Positions 22 to 274 of a stretch of DNA of 16,592 nt are shown piece after piece. A program made the position numbers and the translations under genes. The DNA lies in the IMG/VR virus record IMGVR_UViG_2531839664_000015, positions 1 through 16,592 of that record. One strand, given 5' to 3'. Below the pieces are notes generated by a model that worked only from the letters and a program-made list of their open reading frames with translations, was not told the DNA's origin and did not search any database. Each line of letters begins with the position of its first letter. Positions within the stretch are counted from its first letter, which is position 1. Source of the stretch: a virus (taxonomy: Duplodnaviria; Heunggongvirae; Uroviricota; Caudoviricetes).

Positions 22-98
22 TGGCGCGTTGTAGTGGAGTCGAACCACTGACCGATTGCTTAGAAGGCAATTGCTCTGTCCGGCTGAGCTAACAACGC
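22..98 (-). tRNA. tRNA-Arg (anticodon UCU)
   Basis: Reverse complement folds as a 77-nt cloverleaf: acceptor GCGTTGT/ACAACGC, D-stem GCTC/GAGC, anticodon stem ATTGC/GCAAT with loop CTTCTAA (anticodon TCT), T-stem AGTGG/CCACT with loop TTCGACT, discriminator G and encoded CCA. Confidence 0.8.
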
Positions 99-111
99 AG
101 AATACCGATAA

Positions 112-191
112 TGGACCGCCATCGGGGACCCGGCCCCGCACCAACAACCCTGTTATGGTGTCGTCTGCTCTTCCTGATAAGCTAATGGCGG
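112..191 (-). tRNA. degenerate tRNA-like element (possible pseudo-tRNA; anticodon arm not resolvable)
   Basis: Reverse complement has a perfect 7-bp acceptor pairing CCGCCAT/ATGGCGG, then discriminator T and CCA, a D-arm GCTT/GAGC and a 5-bp GC stem CGGGG/CCCCG in the T-arm position with a 6-nt loop. No canonical 5-bp/7-nt anticodon arm can be drawn in the 28-nt central segment. It sits 7 and 13 nt from the flanking tRNAs. Confidence 0.35.
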
Positions 192-198
192 TTTGTGA

Positions 199-274
199 TG
201 GTGGCCCTTGCTGGATTTGAACCAGCGACCTGGCGATTATGAGTCGCTCGCTCTCACCACTGAGCTAAAGGGCC
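199..274 (-). tRNA. tRNA with CAU anticodon (Ile2-lysidine type or Met)
   Basis: Reverse complement folds as a 76-nt cloverleaf: acceptor GGCCCTT/AAGGGCC, D-stem GCTC/GAGC, anticodon loop CTCATAA (CAT), T-loop TTCAAAT, encoded CCA. Close to the E. coli ileX/ileY-type sequence as recalled; one A-C mismatch at the top of the anticodon stem. Confidence 0.75.

Follow-up and report, generated by a model that had tools for sequence, protein, structure and literature searches.

Phages that encode Shiga toxin (Stx) 2a carry two tRNA-Arg genes and one tRNA-Met gene near stx2a (PMC7946995), and the published gene order of the region is rusA, Q, methylase, tRNAs, stxAB, yjhS and lysis genes (PMC3491183). 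The tRNA islands named in records of Stx2a phages, Stx2k phages and phiP27 have genes labelled ileZ, argN and argO. In Stx2 records the middle slot is occupied by argN, a 77-nucleotide (nt) tRNA-Arg(UCG) gene, and the island lies directly upstream of stx2. Here we analyse the corresponding island of IMG/VR record IMGVR_UViG_2531839664_000015 (Caudoviricetes; positions 1 to 16,592, the whole of which we call the window), where the argN slot holds an 80-nt, tRNA-shaped element without an anticodon loop. The element is probably a tRNA pseudogene in an already known phage tRNA island, a non-decoding relic of a phage tRNA-Arg-family gene that sits in the argN slot of a lambdoid prophage of enterohaemorrhagic Escherichia coli (EHEC). 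Literature searches on ileZ/argN/argO, on a tRNA-like sequence at yahM and on six-nucleotide anticodon loops returned no description of it, the original 933W and phiP27 papers being outside the searched set.

The middle gene of the island has no anticodon loop

The island consists of three minus-strand genes separated by conserved spacers of 7 and 13 nt. Its two outer genes, proposed as tRNA-Arg(UCU) and a CAU-anticodon tRNA in a first-pass annotation of the window, were called as such by ARAGORN and matched by the Rfam tRNA model (Table 1). We refer to them as argO, the name used in the phiP27 and Stx2a records, and ileZ, the name given by the phiP27 authors to the CAU tRNA of the corresponding island. 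ileZ is a tRNA of the Ile2 type, predicted to read as Ile after lysidine modification, and it is nearly invariant between loci (104 of 124 copies are identical).

By contrast, the middle element (CCGCCAUUAGCUUAUCAGGAAGAGCAGACGACACCAUAACAGGGUUGUUGGUGCGGGGCCGGGUCCCCGAUGGCGGUCCA, written along the minus strand) was not recognised as a tRNA. ARAGORN made no call between the two outer genes, and Rfam RF00005, with which both neighbours score 67-72 bits, gave no match over the element in a scan of positions 1-330 with permissive filters and E ≤ 10. Other Rfam families produced chance-level matches only in a permissive scan of the same positions (YrlA at 15 bits, a microRNA and a snoRNA), and a Plastid-ycf2 match was discarded as merely the reverse strand of ileZ. 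In an identical record (L001), the NCBI Prokaryotic Genome Annotation Pipeline (PGAP)/RefSeq annotation has a tRNA-Ile, a tRNA-Arg and no feature at the element. The covariance-model scan, which the first-pass annotation had itself named as a refuting test, was therefore negative for a standard tRNA, and the observation of a degenerate middle member stands.

At its acceptor end and in its D-arm the element resembles a canonical elongator tRNA. The perfect acceptor stem, the discriminator, the encoded CCA and the D-arm had been noticed at the outset, and both the sequence and the fold bear them out. In its anticodon loop, its T-loop and its recognition by tRNA models the element departs from that class. 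The central arm had been described as having no foldable anticodon arm; it does fold, in either of two ways, but into nothing that is an anticodon arm. One fold has an ACGAC/GUUGU stem with an 11-nt loop, ACCAUAACAGG, and the other is a helix of 7-9 base pairs (bp) capped by an AGG triloop. Neither puts a 7-nt anticodon loop on a 5-bp stem, and the element consequently lacks an anticodon as well as U33, C35 and the purine at position 37. The T-loop is non-canonical, as had been claimed, with 6 nt (CCGGGU) and without the T54, Psi55 and A58 positions.

Two further possibilities were tried and rejected. An argO promoter inside the element, with the G-run as its spacer, would need a suitably placed -35-like hexamer near CAUUAU/UAUUCU; inspection found none, and nor did the promoter scan. 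An antisense 'kissing loop' was sought through the complement of ACCAUAACAGG, which occurs only at the element itself and at one chance-level site with one mismatch, a site that is absent from the near-identical record.

The element is homologous to argN

The cluster matches 289 phage records, mostly of Stx2 phages, at 88-92% identity, and its identity to the annotated ileZ-argN-argO islands is likewise 88-92%, over 84-100% of the query. The resemblance to these islands, pointed out in the first-pass annotation, thus holds for gene order, for the short spacers and for the sequence itself. In the alignments, ileZ, argO and both spacers have their counterparts in intact clusters, and so do three parts of the middle gene, its acceptor stem, D-arm and CCA. 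Most of the changes fall in the anticodon arm, the variable region and the T-loop of that gene. As the cluster aligns at this level, the tRNA likeness of the middle element reflects homology, not chance.

The argN genes of Stx2 phages such as Stx2a_WGPS6 (AP012539) and phiSTEC1575-Stx2k (OQ243220) have the same slot, spacers, acceptor stem (CCGCCAU/AUGGCGG), discriminator U and CCA as the element, and a closely similar D-arm. However, argN is 77 nt long and is called by ARAGORN; its D-loop has 9 nt, position 26 is G, a CCAGC/GCUGG stem carries the 7-nt loop CUUCGAA, and the T-loop reads UUCGAGU. The uncalled window element is 80 nt long, with an 8-nt D-loop, A26, the ACGAC/GUUGU stem and its 11-nt loop (or the triloop helix) and the 6-nt T-loop. 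Without an anticodon loop, the middle gene does not qualify as a functional tRNA-Arg(UCG). A dead tRNA gene in this slot would account for the two tRNAs that annotation pipelines list here, compared with three in Stx2 phages.

Copies in the ETEC6333 Stx2e prophage and in phiP27 have the central arm of the window type and differ mainly in the T-arm, where they keep the canonical UUCGAGU T-loop and the window copy does not. A gene of Yersinia phage YeP1, annotated 'tRNA-Pseudo-TTG', shares an AUAAC/GUUGU helix and a position after Q and before lysis, but keeps both the canonical UUCGAGU T-loop and a 7-nt central loop, neither of which the window copy has. Annotations give middle-slot copies whose T-arm is better preserved the label tRNA-OTHER or tRNA-Pseudo; entries of this kind occupy the slot in the ETEC6333 prophage, and the phiP27 copy is unannotated.

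tRNA-like RNAs that do not decode are known from other systems. The species 1 and 2 stable RNAs of the phage T4 tRNA cluster and the 'tRNA-Other' of Bacillus cereus are likewise tRNA-shaped or tRNA-processed and lie among tRNA genes. Those RNAs have been shown to be expressed, they have no sequence relationship to the window element, and the likeness is one of analogy only. The tRNA pseudogenes pawZ, ptwF and pauD at att sites of E. coli K-12 are, like the element, tRNA-derived and associated with prophages, and non-functional as the element probably is, but they are partial 3' duplicates left by integration, whereas the element is a full-length gene within a phage late region.

The argN of Stx2a_WGPS6 (L002 3088-3164), otherwise canonical, has a G3:U70 acceptor pair and a T-stem mismatch. 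G3:U70 is the alanine identity pair, and this argN might for that reason be mischarged.

Within the island, variation is greatest in the argN slot

We surveyed the slot in 114 complete clusters from viral contigs. The middle slot held 47 distinct sequences, compared with 6 for ileZ and 18 for argO. ARAGORN called 79 of the middle genes as tRNA-Arg and left 26 uncalled; these 26 are of the window type, hereafter class B, so that not one class-B copy of the viral sample was called. Lesions that break a stem affected about 5% of the ileZ copies and 11% of the argO copies, whereas among canonical argN copies (counting the TTTCGAA subclass) the share was about one third. Because the argN slot is the unstable one, numbers of 'phage tRNAs' in EHEC genomes cannot be compared from one prophage to another.

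Class B is not rare: of 5426 complete E. coli genomes, 1819 contain its specific core. The T-loop of class-B relatives is either a slippage-prone run of 4, 5, 6, 8, 10 or 13 G or the canonical UUCGAGU. Among the lesions are U8G in two copies, the acceptor mismatches G69A and G71A, and, in one copy, U45G, which disrupts either candidate central helix. In L016 and L112 a natural deletion has joined a 5' argN half to a 3' argO half, and in L036 and L083 class-B genes are truncated. These forms show that the two tRNA-Arg genes recombine and that the middle gene can be dispensed with. Mosaics also occur in the slot (L040, L068), with a class-B centre and a normal T-arm or the reverse.

At class-B loci the nucleotide diversity (pi) of the element was 0.008, compared with 0.003 for ileZ, 0.011 and 0.022 for the spacers and 0.23-0.27 for the mosaic outer flanks. 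We rejected this low diversity as a sign of selection, because the spacers and ileZ are just as invariant. With ileZ and the spacers equally invariant and the flanks mosaic, the element looks like part of a young block that is inherited as a unit, and not like an individually selected gene. The locus thus has what is expected of a tRNA pseudogene, namely tRNA homology, loss of the decoding parts and signs of relaxed constraint, the last of these qualified in class B by the low overall diversity that is common to the spacers.

In a Stx2i prophage (L125 2440-2600) ileZ is degraded as well; the middle gene there is class-B-like, with acceptor and T-stem mismatches, and argO is the sole annotated tRNA upstream of stx2i.

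A constrained relative lies upstream of yahM

A search with the middle element alone found a sequence of about 80% identity in nearly every E. coli genome, lying under yahM. In K-12 it is an unannotated cloverleaf between yahL and yahM (Table 1), which neither the Rfam tRNA model (E ≤ 10) nor PGAP recognised. The start codon of the yahM coding sequence (L123 2578-2823) falls inside the 3' acceptor strand of this cloverleaf; E. whittamii and E. ruysiae lack the yahM open reading frame, and in E. albertii it has diverged strongly.

The cloverleaf is 80% identical to the window element over 87 nt. It has the same acceptor stem, CCA and A26 and shares a AGACGACA...GUUGU core, and its D-arm differs at U13/C13 only. 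The window copy differs from it in the T-arm, which is canonical in the chromosomal copy, and in the central arm, which there is a 7-bp helix with a 6-nt loop. Moreover, the chromosomal copy is solitary and has a conserved promoter of its own and an invariant sequence, whereas the window copy shows no such constraint. E. coli, E. albertii, E. whittamii, E. ruysiae and Escherichia sp. E1V33 all have the same cloverleaf sequence, although identity in its upstream flanks is only 71-88% across them. Within E. coli, 93% of genomes share this sequence exactly, compared with 57% for the adjacent 81 nt. A conserved promoter, TTGACA-16-CATAAT, lies about 90 nt upstream. In a reporter study the yahM promoter was active and repressed by IHF (10.1101/2025.05.13.653802).

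The cloverleaf looks like a constrained RNA gene. The YahM protein may be spurious, and the signals ascribed to expression of 'yahM' may come from the RNA instead. If the RNA is the real gene, this y-ome entry would need to be reinterpreted, and a new class of tRNA-derived RNA would become testable in K-12.

We also considered whether the chromosomal copy is the remnant of a whole phage island and rejected this. Its flanks align with ileZ and argO no better than shuffled sequences do (272/500 and 292/500 shuffles, respectively, reached the observed score), and the resemblance of a 9-nt spacer, seen by eye, was unsupported by the shuffle test.

Related cloverleaf genes form a clade in which the central loop is non-canonical

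The chromosomal copy and the window element belong to a clade whose signature is an 8-nt D-loop of the form AxCxGGAA, A26 and a central stem of the xCxAC/GUUGU type. The window element has all of these; canonical argN, in contrast, has a 9-nt D-loop and G26. The T-arm of the clade, CGGGG-UUCGAGG/U-CCUCG, is absent from the window, which has CGGGG-CCGGGU-CCCCG, but is kept in the closest relatives (L040, ETEC6333 and phiP27). A second scan found 24 further phage loci (L153-L176) with related cloverleaves, always inside tRNA islands and after an ileZ-like gene. Their acceptor, D- and T-arms are intact and their central loops have 6 nt (CAUUAA, CUCAAU, CUCGCU); in ARAGORN output they appear as 'tRNA-???', the anticodon having two bases. 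The papers searched contain no description of 6-nt-loop cloverleaf genes in the islands of temperate phages. Gifsy-1 has a normal UCU tRNA version with the same acceptor stem.

Among 18 members of the family, 92.9% of the cells that the cloverleaf requires to pair were paired, compared with 31-53% in slid controls, and six pairs had changed on both sides, a number that 2 of 500 shuffles reached; as the set includes true tRNAs (argN and the Gifsy-1 UCU gene), this covariation may record only tRNA ancestry. MAFFT misplaces the 3' strand of the central stem in the members of 78-81 nt, so that the 75.6% pairing obtained for the central helix from its alignment is an underestimate, and explicit registers were used instead. 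In these the central stem is intact in all members but for one C x U, with compensatory changes at 4 of its 5 pairs, while the loops range from 3 to 11 nt. The evidence for purifying selection is strong for the chromosomal member, and in class B the low diversity is inseparable from linkage.

Relic or non-decoding RNA

Of the two origins offered in the first-pass annotation, a decaying tRNA is better supported than a tRNA-like RNA with another role. Both neighbours are recognised as tRNAs where the middle element is not, and the host prophage is itself degraded, with a truncated capsid gene and a frameshifted portal gene. As a relic, the element would be co-transcribed with ileZ and argO in a transcript that stops at the terminator behind argO. 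Given that an acceptor/T-like minihelix and the CCA survive, it would probably still be excised by RNase P and 3' exonucleases. It would be neither arginylated nor able to read a codon, with no role in translation, and it could have persisted because it is short, does no harm and is closely linked to two tRNAs that are useful for rare codons. AUA and AGA/AGG depend on scarce host tRNAs, whereas in E. coli K-12 the host ICG and CCG tRNAs already decode CGA and CGG, which makes a UCG tRNA-Arg dispensable. This redundancy is a plausible reason why the argN slot in particular has decayed.

Several observations weigh against a relic. The element is full-length, with a perfect 7-bp acceptor stem, an intact D-arm, the CCA and a four-way cloverleaf fold. 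It belongs to a clade that keeps the cloverleaf scaffold by compensatory changes while the central loop varies, and the member of this clade between yahL and yahM is clearly constrained and lies behind an experimentally active promoter. Class B also occurs in inducible phages (phiP27, mEp460), and 34% of complete E. coli genomes have it; it is therefore not confined to dying prophages.

These observations raise the alternative that the element is a functional RNA, a cloverleaf processed by tRNA enzymes whose central loop is the working part. It could be a decoy or inhibitor of a tRNA-directed enzyme or a defence nuclease, or a regulator, and kin to the copy upstream of yahM. We regard this as unlikely, yet as the most serious competitor to a relic. 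The scaffold is kept family-wide and its central stem is maintained by compensation whatever the loop length, the 24 phage loci with 6-nt loops always lie in tRNA islands, the chromosomal member is invariant in five species, and class B is widespread. But the covariation may reflect only ancestry, and class B has lost the T-loop that other members of the clade keep, with a G-run of variable length in its place. Rare class-B copies have U8G, acceptor mismatches or deletions, and class-B diversity is not below that of the adjacent spacers. Moreover, no complementary target for the loop was found nearby, and no Rfam family matched. We would extend the same idea only tentatively to an unrecognised family of non-decoding, tRNA-processed cloverleaf RNAs, derived from the phage tRNA-Arg lineage and including the element. 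It is doubtful, though conceivable, that the scaffold of such a family is kept for the tRNA maturation machinery while the former anticodon loop, at 3-11 nt, serves as a variable working surface. A history in which the yahM-upstream copy was fixed in the Escherichia ancestor and has been kept invariant from then on, and in which the prophage copies have related activities, for example as decoys or inhibitors, is similarly speculative.

Other explanations fare less well. The element might act as a processing module, its acceptor/T-like minihelix and CCA forming an RNase P/RNase E landmark that releases ileZ and argO from a tricistronic precursor. The parts that RNase P requires (acceptor stem, T-like stem and CCA) are indeed retained where those needed only for decoding are lost, the spacers are short and conserved, and a terminator follows argO. 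We nevertheless think this improbable, for the arrangement of tRNAs differs in other phages, some natural clusters have a truncated middle gene or one fused to argO, and an island with four called tRNAs (L169) has only a shortened, ARAGORN-uncalled member of 69 nt. RNase P also recognises the corner formed by the T-loop and D-loop, which is disrupted in the element. A role at the level of DNA, as a recombination anchor for late-region modules, a relic of an integration site or a contingency G-tract, is very improbable. It would account for a conserved island in mosaic surroundings, the mosaic class-A/class-B halves in L040 and L068, the varying length of the G-run and the variable DNA directly 3' of the chromosomal copy. 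However, any conserved tRNA gene would be an equally good anchor, so that an anchor role gives no reason to keep this element, the att-site tRNA relics of prophages are 3' fragments whereas the element is full-length, and by inspection and consensus scan the G-run lies outside any open reading frame or recognisable promoter spacer. That the element is an unusual tRNA that still decodes is effectively refuted for the window copy. ARAGORN does force relatives into tRNA-Ser(GGA) (the K-12 copy), tRNA-Leu(UAA) (L140) or 'tRNA-???', but these calls lack U33 and the long variable arm of Ser and Leu tRNAs, and the Rfam tRNA model matched neither the K-12 nor the L140 copy at E ≤ 10; the window element itself is uncalled and has neither a 7-nt central loop nor a T-loop longer than 6 nt.

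Taken at face value, a non-decoding relic in the argN slot is a routine finding. The constrained chromosomal relative and the clade with 6-nt loops are the more interesting by-product.

The island within the prophage

Positions 1-330 of the window are 100% identical to a prophage common to many EHEC genomes, for example O157:H7 TR01, and by such sequence identity the window is a lambdoid EHEC prophage. The features discussed are collected in Table 1.

Table 1. Positions of the features discussed (in the window unless a locus handle is given)
Feature	Position	Strand	Basis or remark
Intrinsic terminator after argO, 5' arm	2-8	minus	Rest beyond the left window edge
argO, tRNA-Arg(UCU)	22-98	minus	ARAGORN; Rfam 67.3 bits; PGAP tRNA-Arg
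argN-slot element (class B), 80 nt	112-191	minus	Read from sequence; probable tRNA-shaped relic
Acceptor 3' strand AUGGCGG, discriminator U and encoded CCA	112-122	minus	Read from sequence
T-like hairpin CGGGG-CCGGGU-CCCCG	123-138	minus	6-nt loop instead of UUCRANY
Central arm, 27 nt	139-165	minus	Folds and explicit registers
D-arm GCUU / AUCAGGAA / GAGC	167-182	minus	4 bp, one U-G; 8-nt loop including G18 G19
Acceptor stem 5' strand CCGCCAU	185-191	minus	7/7 Watson-Crick with 116-122 (sequence, fold)
ileZ, CAU tRNA	199-274	minus	ARAGORN; Rfam RF00005 72.5 bits; PGAP tRNA-Ile in identical record
Candidate sigma-70 promoter-like site TTGATT-17-TATTAT	285-313	minus	Consensus scan, 9/12 matches; just upstream of ileZ
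AraC-family helix-turn-helix regulator gene	303-1016	minus	Pfam HTH_AraC 2.9e-13, HTH_18; directly upstream of tRNAs
Q-type antiterminator homolog	1574-2140	minus	Pfam DUF1133 3.7e-105, Phage_antitermQ 5.9e-08
Unannotated 81-nt cloverleaf between yahL and yahM, E. coli K-12	L123 2508-2588		Orthologs L130, L132, L136, L137, L138, L142
6-nt-loop cloverleaf	L154 4400-4474		Temperate-phage tRNA island
6-nt-loop cloverleaf	L168 12356-12433		Temperate-phage tRNA island
6-nt-loop cloverleaf	L163 1194-1271		Temperate-phage tRNA island

Within the late region, the island follows Q and precedes the cargo and holin genes. The gene beside the tRNAs, which the first-pass annotation had placed in the Q slot, is actually the AraC-family regulator gene, interposed between the island and the Q homolog. 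AraC-like regulators of EHEC prophages (Psr/PatE type) affect acid resistance and type III secretion. A terminator had also been claimed between the upstream gene and the tRNAs; this was rejected, as the scan gave only a weak 5-bp consensus match and the count did not exceed that of shuffled sequences. A strong terminator, GGCUCGC-UUCG-GCGGGCC-U6, does follow argO, straddling position 1 of the window (L001 9323-9346 in the identical record). The promoter-like site upstream of ileZ is a candidate only, since the window has no more such sites than shuffles do. By analogy with lambda pR'-tR', the island may form a short constitutive transcript that only Q-modified polymerase reads through.

The first-pass annotation had put the region left of position 1 in the slot that toxin or lysis cargo occupies in Stx phages; toxin cargo was not borne out. 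In the identical record that region has TerB-family and DUF3927 genes, followed by an esterase of the SASA family (NanS-p type) and a holin, with no stx and no toxin. The window prophage thus has no stx in the slot after the tRNAs; stx directly downstream is a property of Stx phages and not of the island as such.

Further along the identical record (L001 12897-16113) are a YdfR-family gene and a major capsid gene, both truncated, and a portal gene with a frameshift, and with its morphogenesis genes in this state the prophage is probably defective. The window also encodes a sok antitoxin RNA (4568-4742, minus strand; Rfam 113.5 bits), which adjoins a Hok/Gef gene in the identical record, and the DicF small RNA (11976-12027, plus strand; Rfam 75 bits). 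With sok and DicF, the prophage therefore has a Qin-like immunity and cell-division-inhibition region.

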